From a virus, in IMG/VR virus record IMGVR_UViG_3300033994_001756, positions 108,254-172,253 of that record: a stretch of DNA of 64,000 bases; one strand, 5' to 3'. How positions within the stretch are numbered: position 1 is the first letter of the stretch; the number at the start of each line of letters is the position of its first letter. Below the pieces are notes generated by a model. It was given only the letters and a program-made list of their open reading frames with translations, made no database searches and was not told the DNA's origin. Made by a program: the position numbers and the translations under genes. Below are positions 14,164 to 53,873 of the stretch, in pieces.

Positions 14164-14164
14164 A

Positions 14165-22031: not shown

Positions 22032-22039
22032 TATAAATA
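22032..22039 (+). promoter_or_regulatory. T4 late promoter TATAAATA
   Basis: exact consensus, 33 nt before the giant structural gene. Confidence 0.85.
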
Positions 22040-22071
22040 AATCTAGTTTTAAAGCCCCTCTAGGTAATCAT

Positions 22072-39300: not shown

Positions 39301-39409
39301 AGGCGATGGAGTTGTAATAAATCAATTAACCGGAACAATAACTGGAAATTCTTACTCTAAGAGTTTATTTTCATCAATAACTCCATTCATTCTAGCTTTA
39401 GGAGCGTAA
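36377..39409 (+). CDS. tail-fibre-like virion protein with beta-helix region (1010 aa)
   Basis: ELAVNTADGKLF N-terminus, HGLLSGLGDDDHLQY, LYVSKDGNDSNSG, QSPYIQNCT, SGHSFEYIGSG. Confidence 0.8.
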   Translation: MATNIRLKSSSQSGKEPTLSELSLRELAVNTADGKLFLRKGDGTGTDKIIEVTAPLKASEPMGHEDKSQSTISFDSGTRVFTIQPSSTSFNVWCKGVKYNITSARTVTIPNTTGLYFIYFDADGVLQYRTSYFDWENDTPTAYVYWNSTTATAPFVADERHGIVLDWQTHEYLHRTRGAVIANGFSISNYITTGTGANNSDAQFDLSGGTFFDEDLEVIVTHSNSPTANTWQQDLQGPARIPVFYQSGNSWVVDAPTDYAVKQGTSRIKYNLLSGGTWSTPDVATNTHYTTSWIIATNNINYPVITIMGQSQSSLISDQEELTFADLTLSDFPIVEFRPIWKIIWQTDSGYANTPKARIAAVFDIRQLTSTGGISGTTPVSDHGLLSGLGDDDHLQYVHVSENRTITANHTITGNLTLSSGLRDRLGNLGSAGQFLSSTGTNIEWKYPTVTNVLYVSKDGNDSNSGTSLQNAKATIKSALSVASAGTVVKVSAGNYIENNPVIIPAQVSVVGDSLREVSVSPQNSGNLFYVNNGSYASNMSFTSSTSNSGAIFSFNPSDPPYINQSPYIQNCTNFISGSTGLLIDGDNCIGQLKSMVVDSYTQFNQNGIGAKIQNDGYAQLVSMFTICTDKAIECRNGGGCDLTNSNSSFGNYGLIADGVSDLKYTGSVTSAISANTTDSINVDISTPTYNVTGASYNNSTGEVTVTIGSHSIQVGMDVKIENLTFSCTSGGSSSNQVFPSGNYGYVFTVKSVTSTSITANVGSSTLSHTYVSGGTVKINNVKPYDGQVVTFNNTLYYQVNKITITNGGNNYTTAPNITISSPATSWGIGAQAIAEIQNGQIKSIEVISSGRGYTSSPPTLTLSGGGGSGVTYSVEMAPQYYVIDTTEQLSSNNYKITLTDTIPFSVAQNDSIEFYKQTRLLASGHSFEYIGSGTDIQTSLPFKGGVSIQENEVDMKNGGLVVYTSTDQSGNFRIGDGVVINQLTGTITGNSYSKSLFSSITPFILALGA

Positions 39410-39415
39410 TTAACA

Positions 39416-39748
39416 ATGGCATTAAAAAATAATGTATTTAAAACTATAGCAGAAGTAGTTCCTACTAGCTCTACTTTAATATATACTGCACCTACCGGAT
39501 ATTCGGCTGTTCTTCTATTGGCACAAGTTGCAAATATTAGCACAACAACATCATATGATGTTACTTTAATTTATACTAGAGGTAGTACAAATACTGAATT
39601 ATTTAAATCATTTCCAGTTCCATTTAAAGATACCGTTAATTTATTGCAAGGAAAATTAGTCTTAGAATCTGGAGATAAATTATATTTGTCTGGTAGTAAT
39701 GGAAGTAATTTGAAATTTGTAGCATCTGTTTTAGAAACAATTAATTAG
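39416..39748 (+). CDS. small virion structural protein (110 aa)
   Basis: IYTAPTG and GKLVLESGD beta-sandwich motifs typical of fibre-associated proteins. Confidence 0.7.
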   Translation: MALKNNVFKTIAEVVPTSSTLIYTAPTGYSAVLLLAQVANISTTTSYDVTLIYTRGSTNTELFKSFPVPFKDTVNLLQGKLVLESGDKLYLSGSNGSNLKFVASVLETIN

Positions 39749-39759
39749 TAGTACTTAAA

Positions 39760-42700
39760 ATGGCAAATTATCTTTCAGATAGACTTAAAAAGTTACAGGT
39801 TGGTATTTCTGGGTATACCGATTCCATTGATGTTGCCAATATTATTGGAAACTCTACTTTTGATGGTTCTGTAGAACTAAAAAAATCTTTAAAAGATAAA
39901 GATGGCCAGGTAGGAACTTCTGGTCAAATTTTAGCATCTAGTGGCACTGGAATACAATGGATATCTGCACCACCAGGAGGAGTTTCAGTATATGAAGAAA
40001 ATACATTATTAGGAAATTTGTATGGCACTACAGAAATTAAATTTGTTGGAAATTATATAACTGCAACTTCATCTGGATCAACTGCAACTGTAACTCTTTC
40101 AGATTTATCATTAGATAATTTAACAGATGTTGTTATTTCATCTCCATCCAATAATCAATTATTGAGATATAATAACTCAAATACTAGATGGGAAAACTGG
40201 ATTCCAAATTTTACTCTAGGTACTGATACAACTGGAAATTACGTAGCAAATTTAGTTGCTGGCACTGGAGTTACTCTTACTAATGGTACGGCAACTGAGG
40301 GAGGAACTCCTACAATATCAATCGGACAAAGTGTAGGTACAACTGATAATGTATCATTTAATAATTTAACGGTTGCTGGAACATTAACAGTCAATGGAAC
40401 TTCAACAGTTATTAATTCAACTGTAACTACAATTGATGATCCAATTATTACATTAGGAGGAGATACTGCTCCAACAACTGATGATTCAAAAGATCGTGGA
40501 ATAGAGTTTAGATGGCATGACGGATCAAATGCAAAAATTGGTTTTTTTGGATTTGATGATAGTACAGGATATCTGACATATATTCCAGATGCAACCAATT
40601 CAAGTGAAGTTTTTAGTGGTACTCTTGGAGACATTCAAGCAACTAATTTTCGTGGTGCATTAGTAGGAAACGCAGATACTGCCACTAAATGGAGTACAAA
40701 ACGCACATTAACATTAAGTGGAGATGTATCTGGAACTGCTACTGATATTGATGGATCTGGTAATATAAGTGTTACTTCAACTTTAGCAAGTTCTGGAGTA
40801 ACTGCTGGAACATATACATCAGTTACAGTAGACACTAAAGGTAGAGTAACCGCCGGGACTAATCCAACAACTTTAGGTGGCTATGGTATAATAGATGCAT
40901 TAACTACTTCTTCCACATCTACCCAATCTGGTTATTTTGGTGATATTTTCTTGTATGATGATTCAACGCCAAGTCATTATCTACAAATAACAAATAGTGC
41001 TAATTTAACGGCAGAAAGGACATTAAGTGTTAATGTTAATGATGCAGATAGAACTATATCATTAAGTGGTAATTTAACCATTAGTTCTAATGCTACTGTT
41101 TCAGGAAGTAACACAGGAGATCAAACTATAGAACTAACTGGTGATGTAACTGGTACTGGTACTGGATCATTTGCTACTACATTATCCAACTCTGGAGTAA
41201 GTGCCGGAACATATACATCAGTTACAGTAGATGCTAAAGGTAGAGTAACAGCAGGGTCAAATCCATCGATAGCACTTACTGATTCACCATCATTTACCAC
41301 TCTAGTAAATTTAAATAATCAAGCTGAACTTAGATTTTTAGAAGATACCACTAATGGAACCAATTATGTAGGACTTAAGGCACCGGCAAATATAACTACA
41401 AATAGAATTTGGGTTCTTCCAAATGTAGATGGTACTAATGGCCAAGCTTTAATTACTGATGGAGCTGGAAATTTATCTTGGAATACTTTTGGTGGAGTAG
41501 ATTTTCTAACTAGTAGCAATACATCAACTCAATCTGGTTATTTTGGTGATATTTTCTTGTATGATGATTCAACGCCAAGTCATTATCTACAAATAACAAA
41601 TAGTGCTAATTTAACGGCTACTAGATCATTGAGTGTCAATGTTAATGATGCAAATAGAACTATCTCCCTTTCTGGAAACTTAACTGTTTCTGCAGATGCT
41701 ACTGTTTCAGGAAGTAATACAGGAGATCAAACTATAACATTAACTGGCGATGTAACTGGGACTGGTACTGGATCATTTGCTACTACATTATCCAACTCTG
41801 GAGTCACATCTGGGACATACACATCAGTTACAGTAGATGCTAAAGGTAGAGTAACAGCAGGGACCAATCCTACAAGTACTGGAACAGGAAATGAAGTAAG
41901 AGCAGATTCACCATCATTTACTACCCTAGTAAATTTAAATAATCAAGCTGAACTTAGATTTTTAGAAGCTTCTGGAAATGGAACCAATTATGTTGGATTT
42001 GAAGCTCCAGCAAACATAACTACAAACACAATTTGGTTTCTTCCGAATGCAGATGGCACTGCTGGGCAGGCATTAGTTACCAATGGATCTGGAACTTTAT
42101 CTTGGGCTACCGCTGGTGGTGGTGGTGCAAGTGGATTTGGAGGTTATAACAATTCAATTACATCATCAGTTTTTGTTTCTGTTACTTCTGGAATTGGCAC
42201 AACTGTAGCATCTTTGAATGATATTACTACTGGTCCAGGTATTGCATATACATTTCCATCGACTGCCGGTAAAAAATATGTAATCGAATCTATACATGTT
42301 ACCAATACATTTACTAATGAATTATATTTTGTAGCAAGACATGACTTTAATGGTGGATCAAATGTTCCATTGGCCCAACGAGTGATTGTTCCATATCAAG
42401 GTGCGATGGAATTTTTAGATCAACCAATTATCGCAAGTCCATCAGATACTATAAGATTTCAAGCACTTTCTAATGCTTCGCCAACTGCAGTAGGTATTGA
42501 TGGGGGTTTGGATGCATTTATTATCATTTCAGAAAAAAGTGACACTACTTATATTGGAACTGGAGGTATAGTATCAACTGCAACGGGAACTCAAATTTTC
42601 CAGGCAACAACAGGGAATGCAATGTTGCAATCAATTAAACTTTGCAACTATAGTTTAAATACTGATATTGATGCATCTGTTTCTATCTATCGTGGCACTT

Positions 42701-42873
42701 TGGCATCTGGAGTAAGATTAGGATACTTAGCTTTTAATATTACAATTCCAAAAAATAGTGTAATTGAACTATTAGTAAAACCAAAATATCTTGCAACAAA
42801 TGATTCTATAGTCGCATCAGCATCTTTAGCAAGCGCATTGGCAGTCACATTATCAGGCAAATATATAGTATGA
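39760..42873 (+). CDS. tail fibre protein with internal repeats (1037 aa)
   Basis: three SGVxAGTYTSVTVDxKGRVTAG motifs, DDPIITLG...DRGIEF, LPNxDGTxGQALxTxGxGxLSW motifs. Confidence 0.85.
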   Translation: MANYLSDRLKKLQVGISGYTDSIDVANIIGNSTFDGSVELKKSLKDKDGQVGTSGQILASSGTGIQWISAPPGGVSVYEENTLLGNLYGTTEIKFVGNYITATSSGSTATVTLSDLSLDNLTDVVISSPSNNQLLRYNNSNTRWENWIPNFTLGTDTTGNYVANLVAGTGVTLTNGTATEGGTPTISIGQSVGTTDNVSFNNLTVAGTLTVNGTSTVINSTVTTIDDPIITLGGDTAPTTDDSKDRGIEFRWHDGSNAKIGFFGFDDSTGYLTYIPDATNSSEVFSGTLGDIQATNFRGALVGNADTATKWSTKRTLTLSGDVSGTATDIDGSGNISVTSTLASSGVTAGTYTSVTVDTKGRVTAGTNPTTLGGYGIIDALTTSSTSTQSGYFGDIFLYDDSTPSHYLQITNSANLTAERTLSVNVNDADRTISLSGNLTISSNATVSGSNTGDQTIELTGDVTGTGTGSFATTLSNSGVSAGTYTSVTVDAKGRVTAGSNPSIALTDSPSFTTLVNLNNQAELRFLEDTTNGTNYVGLKAPANITTNRIWVLPNVDGTNGQALITDGAGNLSWNTFGGVDFLTSSNTSTQSGYFGDIFLYDDSTPSHYLQITNSANLTATRSLSVNVNDANRTISLSGNLTVSADATVSGSNTGDQTITLTGDVTGTGTGSFATTLSNSGVTSGTYTSVTVDAKGRVTAGTNPTSTGTGNEVRADSPSFTTLVNLNNQAELRFLEASGNGTNYVGFEAPANITTNTIWFLPNADGTAGQALVTNGSGTLSWATAGGGGASGFGGYNNSITSSVFVSVTSGIGTTVASLNDITTGPGIAYTFPSTAGKKYVIESIHVTNTFTNELYFVARHDFNGGSNVPLAQRVIVPYQGAMEFLDQPIIASPSDTIRFQALSNASPTAVGIDGGLDAFIIISEKSDTTYIGTGGIVSTATGTQIFQATTGNAMLQSIKLCNYSLNTDIDASVSIYRGTLASGVRLGYLAFNITIPKNSVIELLVKPKYLATNDSIVASASLASALAVTLSGKYIV
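40924..42110 (+). repeat. intragenic tandem duplication, period about 606 nt
   Basis: 40924-41012 is identical to 41530-41618; similarity continues over about 200 codons. Confidence 0.9.
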
Positions 42874-42889
42874 GTTTTAAATTATTTGT

Positions 42890-43549
42890 ATGTCTCTTTT
42901 AATTGCTATGCCTTGTTATGGTGGACTTGTCAGTGATAAAACAGCAAAAGGATTATTTAATCTGGGGAAAGAACTGAGAACCGCAAACATTGACCATGGT
43001 TTACTTACAATGGCAAATGAAAGTCTTGTTACTCAAGCAAGATCTAAGATGGTTAATTTTTTTATGAATAATACAGAATATGAAAGAATTTTATTTATTG
43101 ATGCTGATGTTGGATTTACTGCGGAAGATGTATTTAATCTTTTAAAGTACGATAAAGATATTATATGTGGAGCTTATCCTATGAAAGGAATTCCACTTAG
43201 ATATAATTATAATATTACAAAACCAGAAATAATTGAAGGAGAATTAATACAAATTGAAAATATTGGGTTTGGTTTTGCTATGATTAAAAGAAAAATTTTT
43301 GAGGATATTTCTCAAAAATATGGTGAAGAATTAAAATACTATCCACCAACTAATAATTCTACTTTCCCACCAACTGAAAAAGAATATAATAATTCATATC
43401 ATTACTTTCTAGAACTTAAAAAAGATATGGCATATCTTCCTGAAGATTTTTCATTTTTTGAAAGAGCAAAAAGTGTTGGATACACTGTCTGGTTAAATAG
43501 TAATATTAGACTCGCCCACGTTGGGTCTCACGTTTATCAAGAAGGATAA
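42890..43549 (+). CDS. GT-A fold glycosyltransferase-like protein
   Basis: IAMPCYGG, LFIDADVGF (DxD), GFGFAMIKR, PEDFSFF and HVG motifs. Confidence 0.78.
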   Translation: MSLLIAMPCYGGLVSDKTAKGLFNLGKELRTANIDHGLLTMANESLVTQARSKMVNFFMNNTEYERILFIDADVGFTAEDVFNLLKYDKDIICGAYPMKGIPLRYNYNITKPEIIEGELIQIENIGFGFAMIKRKIFEDISQKYGEELKYYPPTNNSTFPPTEKEYNNSYHYFLELKKDMAYLPEDFSFFERAKSVGYTVWLNSNIRLAHVGSHVYQEG

Positions 43550-43553
43550 TTAA

Positions 43554-45380
43554 ATGGCAACTGGTGTTTTTGGACTTAACAGAGTTTATAAAAATCAATA
43601 CCAAAATGTAAAAAGTAATAATTTTGCAAGTTGGCCTGAGTCTGGCAATTATGGTTACTATGCTTCGGGATCCAATCTTAGCACTGTTTTTGCAAGACTT
43701 GATTTTTCCAATGAGACTGTAAGTGACCCAGGAAAATATTTACCTTCAGGATCTAGGCGTTTTGCAATGGGAGTTTTCAATAATTCATATGGGTATGTTG
43801 GTGGTGGAGATACACCACCAAATTTTATAAACACTAACACCATTACAAGACTTGATTTTTCGACTGAAAATGTAAGTCTTCCTGGAAATAATTTACCATC
43901 AGCAGGAACAAACGCAGCTGGAGTTTCTGGTAAATCATATGGTTATTTTGCTGGAGGCAATTATTCAGGATTTGTCTCTAGTAACATCAGAAGACTTGAT
44001 TTTTCTAATGAAACTTTTAGTATCCCGGGACAAAATATACCTTCAGAAAGACACTATATAAGGTCAGTTTTTACTGATTTATATGGTTATCTTGCGGGTG
44101 GATTTGATCCAGGATTTGTGCTAACTAACACTATACCAAGGCTTGATTTTTCTAACGAAACTGTAAGTAGTCCAGGAAAAAATTTACCTTCAGGAAGAAG
44201 TAATGTTGGACCAATTTTTAACAATTATTTTGGATATTTTGGTGGTGGATATCTCAATGGTCCATACATAAGTAATATTACAAGACTTGATTTCTCAAAT
44301 GAAACTGTAAGTGACCCAGGAAACAATTTGCCTGGTGTACGGGGACATATAGCAGGAACTTCAAGTAATACTTATGGATATTTTGGAGGTGGCGGAACTC
44401 CTGGATTTGACTCGAATGTAATCAATAGACTTGATTTTTCTAGTACAACATTAAATAATCCAGGGAAAAATTTACCTATGATAGTTGTTTCGGCGGTTGG
44501 ACTTACTGGAGGTAAATCTTATACTAAAATGACCAAAACTTATGGGTACTTTGGTGGTGGATACTTTCCAGTATTTGTTAATACAATTTCAAGACTTGAT
44601 TTTTCAACTGATGGTTTTAGCAATCCTGGAAAAAATTTACCAACTGTTAGGGGATGGACCGCAGCAGTTTCAAATAATTTTTACGGATACTTTGGTGGTG
44701 GAGCTAGTCCATCAATTATCAATACAATATCAAGACTTGATTTCTCCAATGAAACTGTAAGTGATCCTGGAAAAGATTTACCTTTAGCAAGATATAATTT
44801 CGCAGGAACATCAAGTAATTCTTATGGATATTTTGGTGGTGGGGCTGCCCCAGGAACAGAGATTTGCACAATAACAAGACTTGATTTCTCCAATGAAACT
44901 GTAAGTGATCCTGGGAAAAATTTATCATCAGCATTACAAAATTCAGTAACAGTCTCAAATAGTTCATATGGATATTTTAGTGGTGGACACTCCACAATAT
45001 CAAGACTTGATTTTTCCAATGAAAATGTAAGTAATCCTGGGAAAAATTTATCATCAGCATTACAAACTATGACAGCAGTTTCAAATAATTCTTATGGATA
45101 CTTTGGTGGTGGGTATTTACCACCATATATTAATACAATTTCTAGACTTGATTTTTCCAATGAGACAGTAAGTAATCCCGGAAAGAATTTACCAGTTGGT
45201 GTTAGTAGATTGGGTGGAACATCATCTATGTTTTTTGGATATTTTGCAGGAGGTCAGACTTCACCGACTGTAAGAACTGCCTCTGTCTCAAAGATTGATT
45301 TCTCAACCGAAAATATAAGTGCTTCTCCTAGTTTACCAAGTGCTAGAAATATTTTAACAGGTCTTTCAAACTCAAACTAA
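43554..45380 (+). CDS. Kelch-like double beta-propeller protein 1 (12 repeats)
   Basis: 12 repeats of YGYFGGG-x-TISRLDFSNETVSxPGKNLP, about 48-50 aa each. Confidence 0.85.
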   Translation: MATGVFGLNRVYKNQYQNVKSNNFASWPESGNYGYYASGSNLSTVFARLDFSNETVSDPGKYLPSGSRRFAMGVFNNSYGYVGGGDTPPNFINTNTITRLDFSTENVSLPGNNLPSAGTNAAGVSGKSYGYFAGGNYSGFVSSNIRRLDFSNETFSIPGQNIPSERHYIRSVFTDLYGYLAGGFDPGFVLTNTIPRLDFSNETVSSPGKNLPSGRSNVGPIFNNYFGYFGGGYLNGPYISNITRLDFSNETVSDPGNNLPGVRGHIAGTSSNTYGYFGGGGTPGFDSNVINRLDFSSTTLNNPGKNLPMIVVSAVGLTGGKSYTKMTKTYGYFGGGYFPVFVNTISRLDFSTDGFSNPGKNLPTVRGWTAAVSNNFYGYFGGGASPSIINTISRLDFSNETVSDPGKDLPLARYNFAGTSSNSYGYFGGGAAPGTEICTITRLDFSNETVSDPGKNLSSALQNSVTVSNSSYGYFSGGHSTISRLDFSNENVSNPGKNLSSALQTMTAVSNNSYGYFGGGYLPPYINTISRLDFSNETVSNPGKNLPVGVSRLGGTSSMFFGYFAGGQTSPTVRTASVSKIDFSTENISASPSLPSARNILTGLSNSN

Positions 45381-45384
45381 TATT

Positions 45385-46212
45385 ATGAAAACTTTTTATT
45401 TTATGTCTGGACTTCCACGTTCAGGTTCTACCTTACTGACAGCATTACTCAATCAAAATCCAGAAGTACATGCATCTACAAACTCTCCACTTTTAGATAC
45501 AATACACTACACAGAAGAGTATCTTTTATATCAATCAGAACAATACAAAGCAACACCAAATCCAGAAGGAGCACATAAGGTCTTATCATCAATACCTGAT
45601 AACTATTACTTCAATATCCCACAAGACATTATTATAGATAAATCCAGAGGTTGGGTTAATGAAATTCAACACATTCAAGATTATATTACAAAAGAACCAA
45701 AGATTATATGTCCAGTCAGAGATATTCAAGATATTATCTCCTCATTTCTAAATCTTGTTTATCATTCAAAAACAACTTCTTTTATTGACGAAGCACTTAT
45801 TTCTAATGGTATAGAGATTAATAATGATAATCGTGCAGACTACCTAATGTCTCCACAAGGGATTATCGGACAATCATATCATGCACTTTCAGAAGCATTT
45901 CGTAAAGGTAACAATAAATATTTGTTATTAGTTGAATACGATAATCTGGTAAATAAACCACAACAAGAACTTAATCGCATTTATGACTTCTTAGAACTTT
46001 CAAAATTTACTCATACTTTTGAAAATATAAAACCAAAATGTGATGAGAACGACGAAGTTTATGGTTTAGAGAATATGCACACTGTCAGAAATAAGGTTGA
46101 AAAAATACATCGTGATAATACAAAGTTCTTAAGTGAGTATGTGATTGATAAATATAATTATATGGAGTTCTGGAAATCAAGAACTCAAAGATATTCTATT
46201 TTTGGACTCTAA
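45385..46212 (+). CDS. sulfotransferase
   Basis: GLPRSGSTLL (5'-PSB loop), DKSR, VRDIQDIISS (3'-PB), YDNLV...IYDFLE. Confidence 0.9.
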   Translation: MKTFYFMSGLPRSGSTLLTALLNQNPEVHASTNSPLLDTIHYTEEYLLYQSEQYKATPNPEGAHKVLSSIPDNYYFNIPQDIIIDKSRGWVNEIQHIQDYITKEPKIICPVRDIQDIISSFLNLVYHSKTTSFIDEALISNGIEINNDNRADYLMSPQGIIGQSYHALSEAFRKGNNKYLLLVEYDNLVNKPQQELNRIYDFLELSKFTHTFENIKPKCDENDEVYGLENMHTVRNKVEKIHRDNTKFLSEYVIDKYNYMEFWKSRTQRYSIFGL

Positions 46213-48083
46213 TGGCAGTATTTTCACTCAACGAAGTTAAGGTAGAACAAGTAAAAAATATTGAAAATAATAACTTCATTAGTTGGCCCGAAAGTGCTAG
46301 TTATGGATATTTTGGAGGTGGATATATTGCTGGCACGCCTAGTGTATCATCCAATTTTAATAGACTTGATTTTTTCAATGAAACATTAAGTGCCCCTGGA
46401 AGAAATTTACCTTCAGCAATATCAAGAGGTGCAACAGCAACTTCAAATTTATATGGATATTTTGGTGGAGGTAGTTTTGGTTCAGGTGGAGTGTCTGTAG
46501 TCACAAGACTTGACTTTTCTAATGAAACTTTTAGTAGTCCAGGAAAAAATTTATTTCTTGGATCTAGATTACTTGGTGGTGTTTCTAGCATTTCATATGG
46601 ATATTTTATTGGTGGGTTTACTCCAGGTTTTGATAGTACAATACAAAGACTTGATTTCTCTAGTGAAAATGTAAGTAACCCTGGAAAACCTTTGCCTTTT
46701 GGAAGGGCAGGGATTGCAACTGTGTCAAATAATCTATATGGTTATGTGGGGGGTGGTGCGGTAACAAGTTTAATTGCAAGACTTGATTTTTCGACAGAAA
46801 ATATAACTACTCCAGTAAATAGGTTACCTAATACTAGAGATTCTTTTGGTGGAGTTTCTAGTAAATTATATGGATATTTTGGAGGTGGTTATACTTGGCC
46901 ACCAGCTTTAGTATATAATACTATTACAAGATTGCAGTTTGACACCGAAACCATAAGTAATAATCCTAGCACACTAGCAGGTATTTCTAGAGCATCTCCT
47001 TCAACAGTTAACACTGACTCATATGGATATTTTGCTGGTGGATTTTTCTCACCTCCATATTCATTTGTAAGTACTATAACTAGACTTGATTTTGGGACAG
47101 GAAGTACAACTAATTTAGCTAACAATCTTCCACAAAATAATCATGGACTATATTCAATGTCTGGTGGGACATCATTTTATCGTGGTTCTAAAACTTATGG
47201 ATATTTTGCTGGAGGTAATGATCCGGTTCCTTCAGCAATTTCTACAATCAATAGACTTGATTTTTCTAATGAAACATTAAGTGACCCCGGAAAAAATCTT
47301 CTAGTAAATTGTGGTAACTCAGCAACGGTAGCATCTAATAATTATGGTTATATATGTGGAGGAAATCGGCCAAGTTTGTTTACTTCTGTAGTGCAAAGAC
47401 TTGATTTTGTTAATGAAACTGTAACTATCACTGGAAAAAATTTACCTATGCAAACTGGTAATGTAACAGGGACTTCATCAAGTTCTTATGGATATATAAT
47501 TGGTGGATATACTGGGGTGACACCACCAGTATGGTTTACTTCTTTAATCAGAAGAATAGATTTTTCAACCGAAAATGTAAGTCTTCCGGGAAAAAATTTA
47601 CCTGGAGTAAGATATTCTGCGGCAACAGTTGCAAATACATCTTATAGTTATATTTGTGGCGGTGATATTCCTACTGGTAGAACATCTAATGTTTTTAGAC
47701 TTGACTTTTCTAACGAAACTGTAAGTAGTCCAGGAAAAAATTTACCACTGGCCGCAACAGGTCAAGGCTCAGTTTCTACTAATTTATATGGTTATATTGC
47801 GGGTGGATTTGCACCACCAATCAGTACCATTACAAGACTTGATTTTTCCACAGAAAATTTAAGTCTTCCTGGCAAAAATTTCACAATACCAAGATCTAAT
47901 ATAAGAGGAACACTAAGTAGTTATTATGGATATTTTGCTGGTGGAAGCAATCCACCAACCTCAGCGAACCTCAGCACTATCACAAGAATTGATTTTATCA
48001 CAGAAAATTTAAATGATCTAGCAAATAATTTTTCCATAACAAAATTTTCAGTAAATTCACTGGCAAACTCAAACACACACTAA
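46212..48083 (+). CDS. Kelch-like double beta-propeller protein 2 (12 repeats)
   Basis: same repeat; start overlaps the sulfotransferase stop (TAATG). Confidence 0.85.
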   Translation: MAVFSLNEVKVEQVKNIENNNFISWPESASYGYFGGGYIAGTPSVSSNFNRLDFFNETLSAPGRNLPSAISRGATATSNLYGYFGGGSFGSGGVSVVTRLDFSNETFSSPGKNLFLGSRLLGGVSSISYGYFIGGFTPGFDSTIQRLDFSSENVSNPGKPLPFGRAGIATVSNNLYGYVGGGAVTSLIARLDFSTENITTPVNRLPNTRDSFGGVSSKLYGYFGGGYTWPPALVYNTITRLQFDTETISNNPSTLAGISRASPSTVNTDSYGYFAGGFFSPPYSFVSTITRLDFGTGSTTNLANNLPQNNHGLYSMSGGTSFYRGSKTYGYFAGGNDPVPSAISTINRLDFSNETLSDPGKNLLVNCGNSATVASNNYGYICGGNRPSLFTSVVQRLDFVNETVTITGKNLPMQTGNVTGTSSSSYGYIIGGYTGVTPPVWFTSLIRRIDFSTENVSLPGKNLPGVRYSAATVANTSYSYICGGDIPTGRTSNVFRLDFSNETVSSPGKNLPLAATGQGSVSTNLYGYIAGGFAPPISTITRLDFSTENLSLPGKNFTIPRSNIRGTLSSYYGYFAGGSNPPTSANLSTITRIDFITENLNDLANNFSITKFSVNSLANSNTH

Positions 48084-48086
48084 ATA
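48080..48086 (+). promoter_or_regulatory. late promoter variant (CTAAATA) overlapping the propeller-2 stop
   Basis: CTAAATA upstream of the glycosyltransferase gene. Confidence 0.6.
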
Positions 48087-48107
48087 AAATACCTACATCA
48101 TTTTGAT

Positions 48108-49811
48108 ATGAAATCTGGAGCAACTGAAAGTTCTTTTTATTACCTAAATCAACATTATCAATTTCCAAATAATGTTGAAGTTTCAAGAAGTATAGAAGTC
48201 TTAGCACAATCAGATAAACAATATAAAATTCTCTGGGCGCATGATAACTGTGACCAACCACAACTCTTAAGACTTCCAGAACTTGTATCGCAGATTGATA
48301 AGATTGTCTGCGTATCAAACTGGGAAGCAGAGCAATATATCAAATATAAGCGAGCACCGGAAGACAAAATTGTAGTCATTCCAAATGGTGTTGCAGATAT
48401 TTTCAATCTTAAATCCCCAAAATCAAAGACAGCAATCTATTTCTCTGGGCCACACAAGGGTATTGTACCACTTCCAAAAATTTGGAGGCAGGTGATTCAA
48501 AATCACCCAGATGCAAAGTTAAAAGTATTTTCTTCTCATAATCTTTATGGAGAACAATACGAACAACACTTTAAGATTCCAGAACACTTAGAGGCAATTG
48601 AAGAATTAAAGTCTCTTCCTGGTGTTGAGTATTCTCCTTGTATTGACCGTGAAACACTACTACCTCATATCCAAGATGCTGCATTCTTCGTACATCCTAA
48701 TGTCTGGGAAGAGACCTTCTGCGTGTCTCTAGCAGAGGCAATGGTTTGTGGGTGTTATCCAATTACCAGTGATATAGGAGCATTAAGTGAAATTTCATTC
48801 AATCGTGGTAAGTACATTCCAATGGATGGAAAAAATACTTCGGTTGGTTGGGAGCCATCTCCCAAGTTTATCAATGAATTCGCGCAAGAACTTTCAAGAT
48901 GTTTTGAGTTTTTTGATAAAGAACCAGAAACTTTTTATAATGCAACGAAAGAACTTTCTTGTATCACCAAAGAAACTTATGATTGGAAGAAAATTGCAGT
49001 AGTATGGAAAAACCTCATTAATAATATTCAGTCTCAAACAGTAAGTCGCCCAAAGTATTACTGTATGGTGAATATAAAGTGTTCTGAAAAGTATACTCAC
49101 CTTGCTTTAGATACATTCTTCAGAAATAGTATTTTCAATTCAAATGATAAGTTCTTCTTGATTGATAATGATAAAACATTTACTCAAGACTATGAGAATG
49201 TAACAATCATTTCAAACTCATCACCAAAGTCATTTGCAGAGAATATGAACTTTATTCTCAAACAAGCACTTATCGATGGTGCTGATTTTGTTGGACTGAA
49301 TAATGATATTGCATTTACAAAAAATTGGAATCACAATCTTGGTGACTCTAGTAGTATTTCAATTCCATTATGCAATCAACATCTACAGGTTGGTGGACTA
49401 AAACCAGAAATGCAACTTGAAGAGTTTGTTGGAAAAGAAGATCAATTGAATGAGTTAGCACAACATATTACAACAAACAACCAAGATATTCCTACAAATT
49501 TAATCAAAGCATTCTATTGTTTCTATGTTCCTCATGAAGTGAGTTCAAAGGTTGGTCTGCTGGATGAAGAGTTTGGACTTGGTGGTGGAGAAGATATTGA
49601 TTATACCTTAAGAGCAGAACAACTTGGTATTGAAACTAAGTTTAATCGTGGTTCATATCTTCTACATTTTTCTCATAGAACATTAGATCATGAGACAGTA
49701 GAAGAAAAAGATAAAAGAACAGAACAATTATACCTGCATTTTTGTAAAAAGTGGGGTAAAGAAATTGCAAATTCAAGATTATCTCTTGCAGTAACTCAAA
49801 GATATTCTTGA
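48108..49811 (+). CDS. bifunctional glycosyltransferase (GT-B/GT4-like fused to GT-A/GT2-like)
   Basis: WAHD, VIPNG, EETFCVSLAEAMVCG (E-x7-E); C-terminal LNNDI and GGGEDIDY. Confidence 0.85.
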   Translation: MKSGATESSFYYLNQHYQFPNNVEVSRSIEVLAQSDKQYKILWAHDNCDQPQLLRLPELVSQIDKIVCVSNWEAEQYIKYKRAPEDKIVVIPNGVADIFNLKSPKSKTAIYFSGPHKGIVPLPKIWRQVIQNHPDAKLKVFSSHNLYGEQYEQHFKIPEHLEAIEELKSLPGVEYSPCIDRETLLPHIQDAAFFVHPNVWEETFCVSLAEAMVCGCYPITSDIGALSEISFNRGKYIPMDGKNTSVGWEPSPKFINEFAQELSRCFEFFDKEPETFYNATKELSCITKETYDWKKIAVVWKNLINNIQSQTVSRPKYYCMVNIKCSEKYTHLALDTFFRNSIFNSNDKFFLIDNDKTFTQDYENVTIISNSSPKSFAENMNFILKQALIDGADFVGLNNDIAFTKNWNHNLGDSSSISIPLCNQHLQVGGLKPEMQLEEFVGKEDQLNELAQHITTNNQDIPTNLIKAFYCFYVPHEVSSKVGLLDEEFGLGGGEDIDYTLRAEQLGIETKFNRGSYLLHFSHRTLDHETVEEKDKRTEQLYLHFCKKWGKEIANSRLSLAVTQRYS

Positions 49812-49817
49812 TAAATA
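49810..49817 (+). promoter_or_regulatory. late promoter (GATAAATA)
   Basis: about 30 nt upstream of the 279-aa gene. Confidence 0.6.
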
Positions 49818-49847
49818 ACAATAACACTATTAAAAGATTGAATAAGT

Positions 49848-50687
49848 ATGTCTAACAATTATGAAGCAATTGCACTTGCAACATCTAAAGAAGTTTTAGA
49901 TGATAGTAATGAGTTTATGTTAAAAGTTCTTCAAGAGGCAACTCGTTGGGAAGAAAGTGAAACTGAACTTGCACAAGGTCGTTCAGATTTTCAGATTGAG
50001 AAGTTTATTATTCACGACAATTTCACAATCCCATCAGCATTTAAAGCTGCACTGATTAATCGTAGAAGTGTAGCCGAAGGACTTCTACAACAAGTCATTG
50101 AAGCAAAAAGATCCGCAAGAGAATTTCACTACAAGTGGGATGGAAAAGATAAAACACAACCCATCTGGTGGAAGACACGTCAAGGTGGAGAAGAACTTTC
50201 CTGGTATGATGTTGATGAGTTTCATTTTCATCGTATGCTTGAAGGATTGAACCGTGGTTTTAAAGCAGCGGTTGAAGAACTCGAATGCTTCGACAAACTC
50301 ATTAATCGTTTGATTGAACTGAATGGTGGCAAATTGGTTTCAAGAGACCAATATAATGAAGACCAACCAAACTACTGGGAGCGCAGACTTGCAAATCAAT
50401 CTCTGGATGATTTACTCGCTGCAAGAACTGGTGTAAATGCTGGTAATATTCGTTCTATGAGAAGAGCAAGTGCTCCTACAGTATTACCTGATGATGTAAA
50501 TCGCACCAAGGGAAGTTTTGGAGATCCAAATAATCCTATGGATTTTCTGAATAGTCTTCAGCAAGCAGTTGCTTCTGGTATTGAAGAAATTACAGGTATG
50601 GATCAACAACTTCTTCGTGGTGTTGAAGAGCAAACACAGAAACAAATTCCCGAGTCATTATTTAACCCAGACCTTAGAGTAGAGTAA
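49848..50687 (+). CDS. hypothetical helical protein (279 aa) within the propeller cassette
   Basis: GRSDFQIEKF and YWERRLANQ motifs; no catalytic motif recognised. Confidence 0.8.
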   Translation: MSNNYEAIALATSKEVLDDSNEFMLKVLQEATRWEESETELAQGRSDFQIEKFIIHDNFTIPSAFKAALINRRSVAEGLLQQVIEAKRSAREFHYKWDGKDKTQPIWWKTRQGGEELSWYDVDEFHFHRMLEGLNRGFKAAVEELECFDKLINRLIELNGGKLVSRDQYNEDQPNYWERRLANQSLDDLLAARTGVNAGNIRSMRRASAPTVLPDDVNRTKGSFGDPNNPMDFLNSLQQAVASGIEEITGMDQQLLRGVEEQTQKQIPESLFNPDLRVE

Positions 50688-50692
50688 ATCCG

Positions 50693-52525
50693 ATGCCTGT
50701 TATAGGAGACACTTTTGGATTAAATTCTGTTTATGAAAAACAAGTACAAAATATAGAATCAAATAACCTTGTAAGTTGGCCTGAAAGTGCAACTTATGGA
50801 TATTTTTGCGGTGGCATTTCACCTATATCAACTATCAGCACAATTACAAGACTTGATTTTTTTAGTGAAATTGTAAGTCTTCCTGGAAAAAATTTACCTG
50901 TGGCATTTAATAGTACTGGAACAGTAAGAAGTATTTCTTTTGGGTATTTTGGTGGAGGCGGAATTGATGGCGGAAGCGTTTCCACCATCACAAGATTTGA
51001 TTTTTCTAATGAAACTATAAGTCTTCCAGGAAAGAATTTGCCAATGACATTAGCTAGTCCAGGGATTTCTAGTAAATCCTATGGATACTTTTTTGGCGGA
51101 AATGGCCAGCCAACCACAATTAGTACAGTCCATAGACTTGATTTTCTCAGTGAAACTATATCTGCTCCTGGAAAAAATCTTCCAGCAACTAGAACTGATG
51201 CGGCAACAGTTTCAACTGATTTATATGGTTATCTTGCTGGAGGATGGCTAAGCGAACCATCAATTTTTACAGCATATAGTACAATCACAAGATTTGATTT
51301 TTCAAATGAAAATATAAGTAATCCTGGAAGAAATTTACCTGCGAACATCTATGGTACTCAGGGAATATCTGGAAATTCTTTTGGATATTTTTGTGGTGGA
51401 TGGAATTTTCCGGCAAGTGGCAGAATTAGTACAGTCTCAAGACTTGACTTTTCAAATGAAACTTTAAGTGCTCCTGGAAGTAATCTTCCGGAAGCAAGAA
51501 ATGTTATGACCGCAGTTTCAAATAGTTCTTTTGGATATATTGGCGGTGGATTTACAACAGGACGTATTAGTACAATAACAAGATTTAATTTATCCAATGA
51601 AACTACAAGTAATCTTGCGGTTAGTTTACCCGAAAGTATAAGTCAATCAATGTCACTTTCCGGTGGAGCATCAGTTTATCGTGGTTCTAAGACTTTTGGA
51701 TACTTTGCTGGCAGATTTCCCTCTGTAAATACAATATCAAGACTTGATTTCTCCAATGAAACTGTAAGTAATCCAGGAAAAAATTTGGGAACGGGAACAT
51801 TTGATTTAGGAGCAGTATCAAATAATTATTATGGATATTTTGTAGGTGGAAATGGTTTAAGTCTAATACAGAGATTAGATTTCTCTAATGAAACTTTAGG
51901 CAATCCTGGAAAAAATTTACCAATAATAGCCTGGAGTATGGGTTCAACCTCAAGTAATTCTTATGGTTATTTTGGGGGAGGATACAATCCTTCAACAAGA
52001 ATTAATACAGTCACAAGACTTGATTTCTCCAATGAAACTGCAAGTAACTCTGGAAATAATTTATCAACGGTAAGAGGAAATTTAACAGCAACTTCAAACA
52101 ATTCTTATGGTTACTTTGTTGGTGGTAATGCTCCGGGATTTTTAAGTACCATCACAAGACTCGATTTCTCAAATGAAACTGTAAGCAATCCTGGAAAAAA
52201 TTTACCAACAGCAAGACAGAATATAGGATCATTTTCAAATAATTCTTATGGATATTTTGGTGGTGGTTATGCTCCCCCTGTGATTAATACAATCACAAGA
52301 CTTGATTTCTCAAATGAAACTGTAAGCAATCCTGGAAAAAATTTACCAACAGCAAGAAATAGCGTAGGAGCAACCTCAAGTAGTTTTTATGGATATTATG
52401 GTGGTGGAAATCCAAATATAAACACCATCACACGACTTGATTTTTCCACAGAAAATGTAAGTGATCCTGGAAATAATTTGCCCGCATCAGGTGGACAGCG
52501 TGGTGTAGTTTCAAACTCAAACTAA
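50693..52525 (+). CDS. Kelch-like double beta-propeller protein 3 (12 repeats)
   Basis: same repeat, same N-terminal FGL...WPES and C-terminal SNSN. Confidence 0.85.
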   Translation: MPVIGDTFGLNSVYEKQVQNIESNNLVSWPESATYGYFCGGISPISTISTITRLDFFSEIVSLPGKNLPVAFNSTGTVRSISFGYFGGGGIDGGSVSTITRFDFSNETISLPGKNLPMTLASPGISSKSYGYFFGGNGQPTTISTVHRLDFLSETISAPGKNLPATRTDAATVSTDLYGYLAGGWLSEPSIFTAYSTITRFDFSNENISNPGRNLPANIYGTQGISGNSFGYFCGGWNFPASGRISTVSRLDFSNETLSAPGSNLPEARNVMTAVSNSSFGYIGGGFTTGRISTITRFNLSNETTSNLAVSLPESISQSMSLSGGASVYRGSKTFGYFAGRFPSVNTISRLDFSNETVSNPGKNLGTGTFDLGAVSNNYYGYFVGGNGLSLIQRLDFSNETLGNPGKNLPIIAWSMGSTSSNSYGYFGGGYNPSTRINTVTRLDFSNETASNSGNNLSTVRGNLTATSNNSYGYFVGGNAPGFLSTITRLDFSNETVSNPGKNLPTARQNIGSFSNNSYGYFGGGYAPPVINTITRLDFSNETVSNPGKNLPTARNSVGATSSSFYGYYGGGNPNINTITRLDFSTENVSDPGNNLPASGGQRGVVSNSN

Positions 52526-52528
52526 ATA
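52522..52528 (+). promoter_or_regulatory. late promoter variant (CTAAATA) overlapping the propeller-3 stop
   Basis: CTAAATA upstream of the oxygenase gene. Confidence 0.6.
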
Positions 52529-52550
52529 AAATTACATATACAATTCTATT

Positions 52551-53210
52551 ATGAATGATATTCTTGCTAATGTTTTGATTCAACCTAAAGTAGTCACTCC
52601 AGAAGGGTTGAAATTTTTAACCGATCATATGAAAAAATCTCATAAAGAACAAATGTCTGTTTTTGATGCTGAAAGAAGTGATATAACAAGGCAAAGAGAA
52701 TCAAAAATAGATAAGTCAGTTAGAAATGTCGAGTGCGCTGATTTGCTTCCAGTCTATCCTCAAGTGAAAGATTTACTTGATAACATCGTAAAAAATGTAA
52801 TCAATCCATTTTATAAATTTGAAATACGGGATAGTGAAGAACCTCAGTTACTTTGTTATAGTCCAGGAGGACACTATAAACCTCACAACGATGCAGAAGG
52901 TTTGTGGACAAATCCCGATGGTACACAAATATGGAAAAAAACAATAGATAGAGATATATCCACTGTATTATTTTTGAATGATGATTTTGAAGGTGGATAT
53001 TTCTCTTTTCCTGATTTAAGAATTAAAGTAAAACCTGAACCAGGATTACTTTTATGTTTTCCATCTTCTAGATGGTATACTCATATGGTAGAACCAGTAA
53101 TTTCAGGTAATCGTTATAGTCTTGTTACCTGGATGAGAGTAAAAGGATTTAAGACAAAAGAAGAAATTGATAAAGAAATTGCTGACAAGTATGGTATAGA
53201 GGTTTATTAA
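52551..53210 (+). CDS. 2OG-Fe(II) oxygenase, prolyl-4-hydroxylase-like
   Basis: YSPGGHYKPHND (HxD), LFLNDDFEGG, FPS...H.V.PV.SG.RYSLVTW. Confidence 0.92.
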   Translation: MNDILANVLIQPKVVTPEGLKFLTDHMKKSHKEQMSVFDAERSDITRQRESKIDKSVRNVECADLLPVYPQVKDLLDNIVKNVINPFYKFEIRDSEEPQLLCYSPGGHYKPHNDAEGLWTNPDGTQIWKKTIDRDISTVLFLNDDFEGGYFSFPDLRIKVKPEPGLLLCFPSSRWYTHMVEPVISGNRYSLVTWMRVKGFKTKEEIDKEIADKYGIEVY

Positions 53211-53788
53211 ATCCTAGTCAATAAGTCATAACACTTTTGATTTTTATCATATGCATAGTCTGCATATTGACCATTCTTTCTCACAAAATGAAGAAATAAT
53301 TGCATAAATCTATCATGTTCATGCGTTCTCAATGGACTTCTCCAGTGAGGTACAATTGTCCCTAAGTATGCTACGCCATCTCCAGTAGGAGTTACAACTG
53401 ATTGTTTATTTCCTTCTAAATCTTTAAGTTTAATTGGCCAAGCAGTATCACCACAAATATTCATCGTAACTGATATTTCACATGATGGTCTATCGGTATG
53501 ACAATTCATCCATCCTCTATTGTGATAAGTTGTAGAGAACCAATAAGCAGGAATAAGTTCTTCTCCTAAAAGTTCTTCTAACACTGGTTGTATTCTTTTC
53601 ATTACAAATGCACATGCTGGAGGAGCGTAACAAGTTAATACGTGTCCTCTTTCTGGGTCAAAATAAGGTTTTAATCCACCAAGATCTCTAATTGCTCCAG
53701 ATAGATTTGCATATTTAATTTGTATAGCTTCTTCTTTGGTAATAATTGCTGGAAGGTAATACCAACCTTTCTTTGTAAAATCACTCAT
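53207..53788 (-). CDS. 2OG-Fe(II) oxygenase-like protein
   Basis: HTDRPSCEISVT (HxD), HWR and QLFLHFV motifs. Confidence 0.85.
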   Translation of the reverse strand: MSDFTKKGWYYLPAIITKEEAIQIKYANLSGAIRDLGGLKPYFDPERGHVLTCYAPPACAFVMKRIQPVLEELLGEELIPAYWFSTTYHNRGWMNCHTDRPSCEISVTMNICGDTAWPIKLKDLEGNKQSVVTPTGDGVAYLGTIVPHWRSPLRTHEHDRFMQLFLHFVRKNGQYADYAYDKNQKCYDLLTRI

Positions 53789-53844: not shown

Positions 53845-53873
53845 ATTATACAGGGTTTCATGGGTCTTGTCAA
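53845..53873 (-). promoter_or_regulatory. consensus sigma70 promoter (leftward)
   Basis: minus strand TTGACA (53873-53868)-17 nt-TATAAT (53850-53845). Confidence 0.88.

Follow-up and report, generated by a model that had tools for sequence, protein, structure and literature searches.

Introduction

Freeman et al. reportedly found in 2023 that mycobacteriophage glycosyltransferases, encoded next to structural genes, modify the virion proteins of their own phage in the cytoplasm. This is the nearest experimental precedent for the system analyzed here, a cassette of propeller and enzyme genes at positions 42890-53788 of a stretch of 64,000 nucleotides (hereafter, the window), which forms the final 64 kb of the 172,253-bp IMG/VR virus record IMGVR_UViG_3300033994_001756. 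In the mycobacteriophages, the targets are said to be capsid and tail-tube proteins and the modification to be glycosylation only. In contrast, the candidate targets of the present cassette are Kelch propellers of a cyanophage tail-fibre module, with a hydroxylase, a sulfotransferase and, in relatives, methyltransferases as further options. The reading that we prefer, at slightly better than an even chance, is that of a modular propeller and tailoring-enzyme cassette in the tail-fibre module, the enzymes of which would decorate the phage's own propellers.

Among published ideas, the closest is that of Iyer, Aravind et al. (2010; PMC2938197), who predicted bacterial operons that hydroxylate and then sulfate tail-collar or collagen-like substrates. 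Both systems place 2-oxoglutarate (2OG)/Fe(II) dioxygenases, including AlkB-like ones, and a P-loop sulfotransferase beside a non-enzymatic, fibre-related putative substrate. The logic of hydroxylating a residue and then decorating the hydroxyl is also shared, and in both cases it is a prediction. However, the operons of Iyer et al. are cellular, often contain a synthetase for 3'-phosphoadenosine-5'-phosphosulfate (PAPS) and are paired with tail-collar or glycine-rich proteins, whereas the cyanophage cassette is phage-borne, lacks a PAPS gene, adds glycosyltransferases and a protein named F below, and has an oxygenase of the prolyl 4-hydroxylase (P4H) type (PF13640). Dioxygenase and sulfotransferase do occur together in it, but their partner is a Kelch propeller; the two systems are alike without being the same.

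The third point of comparison is protein A197 of the virus STIV, which is the nearest solved relative of A, the first gene of the cassette: the orthologue profile of A matches it, and the DxD motif is retained. A197 is regarded as a likely cytosolic glycosylator of the STIV coat protein (PMC4187194). Its virus, however, infects archaea, and this distant relative is itself uncharacterised.

A literature search found no description of this cyanophage cassette, which we would class with the virus-encoded tailoring of virion proteins. If the proposed decoration is real, no earlier bacteriophage example of proline hydroxylation and sulfation of virion proteins is known to us. The original prediction for this locus, made from the DNA letters, had proposed a self-contained late pathway that hydroxylates, glycosylates and sulfates virion proteins, most plausibly the propellers or the tail fibres, and had suggested mimicry or binding of sulfated surface polysaccharide of the host as a possible function.

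Gene content of the cassette

The record carries direct terminal repeats and belongs to a T4-like myovirus, the genome of which encodes the gp23 capsid protein (PF07068, E 2e-143) and a tail sheath. The capsid protein is about 72% identical to those of the cyanomyoviruses S-CREM1, S-H38 and P-TIM40. Baseplate-hub, giant structural and tail-fibre genes lie 5' of the cassette; a gap of 16 nt separates its first gene from the tail-fibre or structural gene T2.

When the open reading frames (ORFs) were checked, all nine had the coordinates, order and strands of the original prediction. On the plus strand, these are A (42890..43549, 219 aa), a GT-A glycosyltransferase of STIV A197 type; propeller 1 (43554..45380, 608 aa); C (45385..46212, 275 aa), a PAPS-type sulfotransferase; propeller 2 (46212..48083, 623 aa); E (48108..49811, 567 aa), a GT4-type GT-B domain (residues ~1-310) fused to a GT2-like domain (~315-567); F (49848..50687, 279 aa), a conserved helical protein; propeller 3 (50693..52525, 610 aa); and H (52551..53210, 219 aa), a prolyl-hydroxylase-like 2OG/Fe(II) oxygenase. 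The last gene, I (53207..53788, minus strand, 193 aa), is convergent with H and encodes a putative 2OG oxygenase, divergent and probably AlkB-like. The genes are 0-36 nt apart. Membrane segments were found in none of the nine proteins, which are all predicted to be soluble.

Comparative anatomy of the cassette

A search of IMG/VR yielded 301 related stretches, and when the ORFs of about 90 loci were classified, about 55 distinct architectures emerged. They follow a shared grammar, T2 (O5) (A) P (C P) (E) F P (C P or P) H and then I on the minus strand, where P stands for a propeller and brackets for optional parts. An equivalent gene set is present in S-SKS1 and in the divergent Kyanoviridae virus AG-345-L05. 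In every locus the cassette lies inside the fibre module; in the window, the glycosyltransferase gene A adjoins the structural gene T2. Gene co-occurrence thus established the cassette as a real conserved unit attached to fibre genes.

The invariable parts are the propellers, F (74 loci) and H (81 loci), whereas A (39 loci), C (50 loci), E (52 loci) and O5 (24 loci) are optional. O5 is an extra PF13759 (2OG-FeII_Oxy_5) oxygenase located between T2 and A (for example L012:1022-1600) and is absent from the window. The positions of the other genes are strict: A always immediately precedes the first propeller, C within the cassette is always followed by a propeller gene, F is always directly 5' of a propeller gene and occurs with propellers only, and H follows the last propeller wherever that end is present, including in AG-345-L05, L122, L123 and L129.

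Median identities to the window were 47% for the propellers and 53% for T2 (which precedes the cassette in 47 loci), as against 81% for both A and F, 80% for C, 69% for the GT4 domain in E and 68% for H. The propellers thus evolve about as fast as tail fibres, in contrast to the conserved enzymes.

Minimal cassettes (L036 and L037) consist of the hydroxylase, F and propellers, with neither a glycosyltransferase nor a sulfotransferase. Other loci have the sulfotransferase and no glycosyltransferase (L011, L052, L067), or glycosyltransferases and no sulfotransferase (L012, L024, L061, L085, L088). As these enzymes occur independently, sulfation of a phage-built glycan is disfavoured, and the idea that the sulfotransferase acts on glycans is unlikely as a rule.

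The same comparison bears on the main rival reading, according to which the enzymes remodel host envelope glycans (lipopolysaccharide or exopolysaccharide) or build a soluble glycoconjugate, and the propellers are independent adhesins sharing a hypervariable island. GT4 enzymes commonly use lipid-linked sugars at the cytoplasmic face of the membrane, and the enzyme set (GT2, FkbM, GT17, sulfotransferase) varies in the manner of O-antigen tailoring sets. In addition, A- and E-like enzymes (about 25% identity) are found in propeller-less T4-like phages of alpha-proteobacteria, and in S-SRM01 a related sulfotransferase lies beside a glycosyltransferase and a nucleotide-sugar epimerase with no propeller. 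Cyanophage glycosyltransferase clusters are also currently read as host-surface modification (PMC12801897). However, the cassette has no initiating transferase, flippase, polymerase, exporter or sugar-nucleotide gene, and none of its proteins has a membrane segment. Its enzymes are placed singly among the propeller genes and do not form a block, and the minimal cassettes keep hydroxylase, F and propellers when every glycosyltransferase and sulfotransferase is gone. Taken with the fusions and the promoters described below, this leaves envelope remodelling an unlikely explanation, albeit the strongest of the competitors.

Links between F, the hydroxylase and the propellers

F was set down as a protein of no known family, and it has remained one: it had no Pfam match and no significant fold match, ESM Atlas returned nothing, and the 522 homologues from a metagenome protein search were all close relatives without a name. 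The AlphaFold2 model (pLDDT 67.5) is a long helical hairpin. Its similarity to prefoldin beta (Foldseek 2zdi_B, TM 0.77; VIA Z 6.7) did not rise above the background of helical proteins and was rejected.

F was nevertheless found joined to enzymes. In L122, L123, L129 and AG-345-L05, F and the GT4 domain form one ORF (F model positions 14-268 of 281, E 1e-65 to 1e-84), with GT4 at residues 1 to ~305 and F at ~320-585. In L110 (318-12426), a tail module of siphovirus type contains, in this order, a tape measure (PF10145), a Prophage_tail-like gene, an unassigned ORF of 344 aa, a single six-bladed propeller and a fusion of an F-like domain with Methyltransf_24; in L104, an F-like domain lies immediately 3' of the propeller. 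The F module thus goes with propeller genes in tail types that are unrelated, and tailoring enzymes of two classes can be fused to it, a pattern that tells against envelope remodelling. We regard F as a candidate adaptor or chaperone between enzymes and propellers.

The second link concerns H. The loop that joins strands C and D of the blade contains a proline in 79% of 553 blades from the window's family and in 71% of 41 blades of AG-345-L05, and H is adjacent in both. In the H-less lineages, the corresponding counts are 0/7, 0/6, 0/4 and 3/18 blades, and one of the H-less records is a complete 57.5-kb genome without a PF13640 gene. Since F fusions lie beside propeller genes and the loop proline co-varies with H, the propellers are the best candidate substrates.

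The propellers

Kelch_3 was above its Pfam cut-off in all three propellers. For PF24681 (cut-off 50 bits), propeller 1 scored 74.8 bits (8e-21; also phrog_19111) and propeller 3 scored 56 bits (4e-15), while propeller 2 stayed below with 35.7 bits (7e-9). Each protein is built of 12 repeats, and the linker that follows repeat 6 is longer; at about 48 aa, the repeats fall within the 44-56 aa expected of Kelch repeats. By profile search, one half (residues 335-596) aligns over entire six-bladed Kelch domains in the PDB, namely SAKe6FR (8e-18), KLHL12, KLHL20 and Keap1, and relatives have 12, 18 or 24 blades, in steps of six. The propellers had been described as 12-bladed: the number of blades stands, but each protein is best read as two predicted six-bladed Kelch propellers in tandem and not as a single ring. 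When AlphaFold2 was applied to propeller 1 with 21 homologues, pLDDT was 38 and pTM 0.33, so that this reading of the fold is based on sequence.

Repeat length and the GG, Y and R scaffold positions are like those of the six-bladed Kelch domains of KLHL12, KLHL20, Keap1 and the designed SAKe6. Unlike these, the cyanophage proteins string two to four propellers in tandem, and they have a signature of their own (R-L-D-F-S-x-E-T-V-S-x-P) together with a conserved N-terminal segment of about 30 aa. In a logo of 388 blades, the Kelch scaffold positions were visible and the loops were hypervariable.

The N-E-T motif position of these 388 blades holds Asn in 46% and Thr in 41%. Where a cassette lacks glycosyltransferases altogether, the motif frequency is 0.67-0.91; in several that have them, it is 0.00. 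N-glycosylation of N-E-T was rejected, as the motif is poorly kept and does not track glycosyltransferase presence. Position +5 of the blade motif switches by clade, in all three paralogues together: it is nearly always Thr (S-T-E-T) in L018, L020, L073 and L080 and nearly always Asn (S-N-E-T) in L036, L042 and L067.

The propellers cluster by genome and not by the upstream enzyme, which points to concerted evolution; a scheme of one enzyme for its own propeller was rejected on this ground. The family is essentially confined to phages, with a single match among 185,579 prokaryote species genomes. This match, L102 (CAZXGO010000276.1), is a 2.6-kb contig binned in a Chitinophagales metagenome-assembled genome and is probably a mis-binned phage fragment. 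Among cultured or single-cell sources, S-SKS1 and AG-345-L05 are the only carriers, and an IMG/VR search seeded with the AG-345-L05 propeller gave no matches. In S-SKS1 (L001, HQ633071.1 199817-207940), the sole cultured carrier, two ORFs (142 and 92 aa) are annotated in place of one hydroxylase and the propellers are fragments of 168-465 aa, as a result of either decay or errors in the old sequencing.

Kelch domains are well known as modules that bind proteins. Thus, the propellers could be substrate adaptors as in BTB-Kelch proteins, which would bring host proteins to the adjacent enzymes for host takeover. The identity of the nearest solved relatives (KLHL12, KLHL20, Keap1) and the hypervariable loops fit this idea. 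However, the propellers stand behind fibre genes in a late-promoter context and change at the rate of tail fibres. Moreover, the L110 propeller lies in a siphovirus tail module, three genes past the tape measure and one unassigned ORF from the distal-tail-type gene, and a Kelch protein of phage CBB, CBB_552, was detected in virions by mass spectrometry (PMC5259590). A role in host takeover is accordingly very improbable.

The transferases

For gene A, no Pfam family reached its cut-off (Glyco_transf_8, E 0.013), and the PHROG match was phrog_1574 (6e-31). The profile of its orthologues matched PDB 2c0n (STIV A197, GT-A fold) with an E value of 2.6e-6, and D71 and D73 of the DxD motif are invariant. 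These two results bear out its assignment as a GT-A enzyme.

The sulfotransferase assignment of C was confirmed likewise. Both Sulfotransfer_3 (PF13469, 63.7 bits against a cut-off of 27; 4e-17) and Sulfotransfer_1 (PF00685, 49.6 bits against 22; 5e-13) were above their cut-offs, and the PAPS-binding loop GLPRSGST occupies residues 9-16, in a stretch matching TPST1/2 and NoeE.

E had been described as a GT-B and GT-A fusion. The first half of this description is supported by Pfam: residues 57-307 match a GT4-type GT-B, with PF13692, PF00534 and PF13439 above cut-off and an invariant stretch WEETFCVSLAEAM (E-x7-E). The model of the N-terminal GT-B domain was matched at only its last ~40 positions, so this domain looks shortened. 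The C-terminal half had no Pfam or PDB match. On weaker evidence than for the GT4 half, namely TIGR01556 (E 2e-4, far under its cut-off) and an ESM Atlas feature search that returned GT2 clusters (0.98), it may be GT2-like.

Behind the constant GT4 half, the C-terminal partner varies: the window and L007 have a GT2-like domain, many relatives an FkbM methyltransferase, and others the F domain described above. Examples of E are located at 48108-49811 in the window, L012:4224-5867, L018:8655-10331 and L122:399-2222. One relative has an additional GT17-FkbM protein.

The oxygenases

H is the sole PF13640 (2OG-FeII_Oxy_3) gene of the genome, with 55.9 bits against a cut-off of 27 (9e-15). H112, D114, H178 and R188 are invariant in 12 orthologues, and the best PDB matches of the orthologue profile were P3H1, the Bacillus anthracis P4H and the PBCV-1 P4H (2e-9 to 2e-7). 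Like PBCV-1 P4H (5c5t) and Bacillus anthracis P4H (3itq, 5hv0), H combines PF13640, an HxD...H triad and a basic residue 10 positions after the distal histidine; the similarity is remote (profile E 2e-7 to 3e-9), and hydroxylases of PKHD/PiuC type score nearly as well. The P4H-like assignment of H therefore holds on the family match, the iron triad and the prolyl hydroxylase profile matches.

A further explanation is hypermodification of the phage DNA, in which a base would be hydroxylated and then glycosylated. T4-type phages glucosylate hydroxymethylcytosine by means of GT-B enzymes, and phage TET enzymes exist. When searched as a single sequence, H matched a Tet-like dioxygenase weakly (E 0.002). 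However, this match was gone from the profile search, in which prolyl hydroxylases were found and Tet was absent from the list; no gene of the ThyA or dCMP-hydroxymethylase family was found in the genome, and the genes are embedded in the fibre module. A Tet_JBP search of the genome returned nothing, but the control search also matched no genome, which makes this result uninformative. We know of no DNA modification by a sulfotransferase. DNA modification is therefore disfavoured, to the point of being extremely improbable.

Gene I itself had no Pfam or PDB match. In its family (2442 clusters), the residues H97, D99, H148 and R150 do not vary, and weak matches to the AlkB-like PF13532 were seen for 6 of 47 relatives. 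The PHROG label of I (phrog_2954, 'ferrochelatase') was rejected, as neither I nor its 47 relatives matched a Pfam ferrochelatase; the label appears to derive from an earlier annotation (PMC3037559). Homology between H and I was not demonstrable (hhalign probability 4.7%). From the conserved triad and the AlkB-like relatives, I is a plausible 2OG oxygenase, so the reading of it as a second oxygenase keeps this reduced strength. As a member of the pathway it fared worse: I is missing from two cassette lineages (the loci without it are L122, L123, L127, L129 and the AG-345-L05 cassette), and it has a sigma-70-type promoter of its own. For these two reasons, it is probably a neighbour that stands outside the pathway.

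The oxygenases raised a further possibility, that of historical co-location: H and I would be ordinary cyanophage 2OG oxygenases, for which DNA repair or 2-oxoglutarate turnover has been proposed elsewhere, flanking a fibre island in which some or none of the transferases act on the propellers. The H and I families are indeed common in cyanophages without propellers (283 and 156 phage records, respectively), and Sullivan et al. listed such oxygenases as sporadic host-like genes (PMC3037559). The promoter of I, its opposite strand, its likeness to AlkB, if to anything, and its loss from two lineages point the same way. H, on the other hand, follows the last propeller in 81/81 loci, including the divergent AG-345-L05, L122, L123 and L129, which have no I. 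Among cultured records, its orthologues (at least 42% identity) are limited to cassette-bearing phages, the broader family in other cyanophages being at about 30%, and the loop proline tracks H. Historical co-location is thus probably correct for gene I; as an account of the whole cassette, it is quite unlikely.

Transcription signals

Late-type motifs were found in front of three genes and not of all. A CTAAATA late-promoter-like motif (48080..48086, plus strand) runs over the propeller 2 stop codon, about 22 nt before E, and L007, L015 and L020 have it in the corresponding position. The sequence GATAAATA (49810..49817, plus strand), located 30 nt before F, fits the cyanomyovirus late-promoter consensus NATAAATA, and CATAAATA occupies the same place before F in L012, L015, L018 and L020. 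Finally, a CTAAATA motif (52522..52528, plus strand) overlaps the stop codon of propeller 3, 22 nt before H, and is kept in L007, L011, L015, L018 and L020. These motifs hold their position in relatives whose enzymes are just 56-85% identical. NATAAATA is the reported late promoter of cyanomyoviruses (PMC2984593), and CTAAATA is the late promoter of the T4-like phage Aeh1 (PMC1524935).

The statement that late-type promoters precede several genes is thus retained for E, F and H. With the conserved motifs and the gap of 16 nt to the tail-fibre gene, the cassette is probably expressed late, as had been proposed, and late-type promoters would be ill-suited to remodelling the envelope of a host near lysis.

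The signal upstream of I is of another kind, a sigma-70-type promoter (53845..53873, minus strand; TTGACA, 17 nt, TATAAT) that agrees with 12/12 consensus positions. Comparable TTGACA-17-TAGAAT or TAGACT sites are present in L024 and L015. This suggests an early, separate expression of I.

The sole perfect T4 late promoter of the window, TATAAATA, is located elsewhere (in the region 22032-35778), 33 nt before an ORF of 4568 aa (22072-35778).

Neighbouring genes

The tail-fibre gene T1 (36377..39409, plus strand, 1010 aa) matches phrog_17885 (tail fiber protein, E 6e-163). It is followed by a 110-aa gene (39416..39748, plus strand; phrog_1276, function unknown), which has the same position in L036, L067 and AG-345-L05, and by T2 (39760..42873, plus strand, 1037 aa; phrog_697 structural protein, phrog_7389 tail fiber), directly 5' of the cassette. 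In L080 and L099, a T1-like tail-fibre gene lies after gene I, so that fibre genes flank the cassette on both sides.

T1 and T2 of the window had no tail-collar Pfam match and no collagen-like G-X-Y runs. In some relatives, the T2 homologue (L012:2-994) contains long collagen-like G-X-Y repeats (GNQGHQGDTGAQ...) without proline. A collagen-like substrate in the fibres of the window was rejected, the runs being absent from T1 and T2 and those of the relative being proline-free.

Elsewhere in the window (11503-17143), two adjoining large proteins (886 and 992 aa) each have an M23-type peptidase region and tape-measure or lysin-like segments.

Discussion

The preferred reading, that the enzymes of the cassette decorate the phage's own propellers, can be developed into the following scheme. 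The three paralogous double propellers are most likely virion-associated parts for host recognition, or adhesins, given that they lie behind the fibre genes, change at a fibre-like rate and vary by units of six blades. Late in infection, the soluble enzymes would act on the propellers in the cytoplasm, and possibly also on the neighbouring fibres. H would first hydroxylate the proline kept in the C-D strand loop of most blades. The optional enzymes A, E (GT4 and GT2, with FkbM in relatives) and C would then add a variable decoration, the sulfate being placed, probably, directly on protein hydroxyls and not on a phage-built glycan. F would couple the enzymes to the propellers as an adaptor or chaperone.

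The host would supply 2-oxoglutarate, nucleotide sugars and PAPS, as well as S-adenosylmethionine in relatives. No APS kinase for PAPS was found in the genome. The cassette contains no sugar-nucleotide synthesis gene, the whole genome not having been searched for these or for other cofactor-supply genes. In a genome without APS kinase, the donors come from the host, and the pathway cannot be called self-contained, as the original prediction had it.

Several points weigh against this scheme. For no member has a modification, or the presence of a propeller in virions, been observed. The loci derive mostly from a single abundant phage lineage, so that the synteny is partly due to shared ancestry. 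The co-variation of proline and hydroxylase is derived from about four H-less loci, one of which is on a contig just 7% complete, and the place of the proline loop on the fold, for a propeller that AlphaFold2 did not model, is taken from the Kelch consensus only. The grouping of the propellers by genome leaves no enzyme-specific partnership visible. Finally, enzymes of these families also occur apart from propellers, as described above for the H and I families of cyanophages, for the A and E families of alpha-proteobacterial phages and for the sulfotransferases of S-SRM01, which lie in glycan-type clusters.

A bolder version of the preferred reading is a swappable chemical code. In this version, a universal prolyl hydroxylase would create hydroxyproline handles at dozens of loop positions per protein, on which glycosyl-, sulfo- and methyltransferases recruited by F would write lineage-specific decorations that help to set the host range or protect the particle. 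We put this forward tentatively, as a possibility and not as an expectation.

If such a code is true, the specificity of a phage adhesin would be tuned after translation. Should the propellers, more generally, be host-binding parts which the phage hydroxylates, glycosylates and sulfates by itself, host range would depend on a post-translational chemistry that is unreadable from the adhesin sequence alone. The F domain would represent a new enzyme-targeting module, and the cassette would offer a tractable model for the assembly of hydroxylase and transferase systems before eukaryotic extracellular matrices. Cyanomyoviruses of the sea rank with the most abundant viruses on Earth, and ocean metagenomes commonly contain relatives of this cassette.

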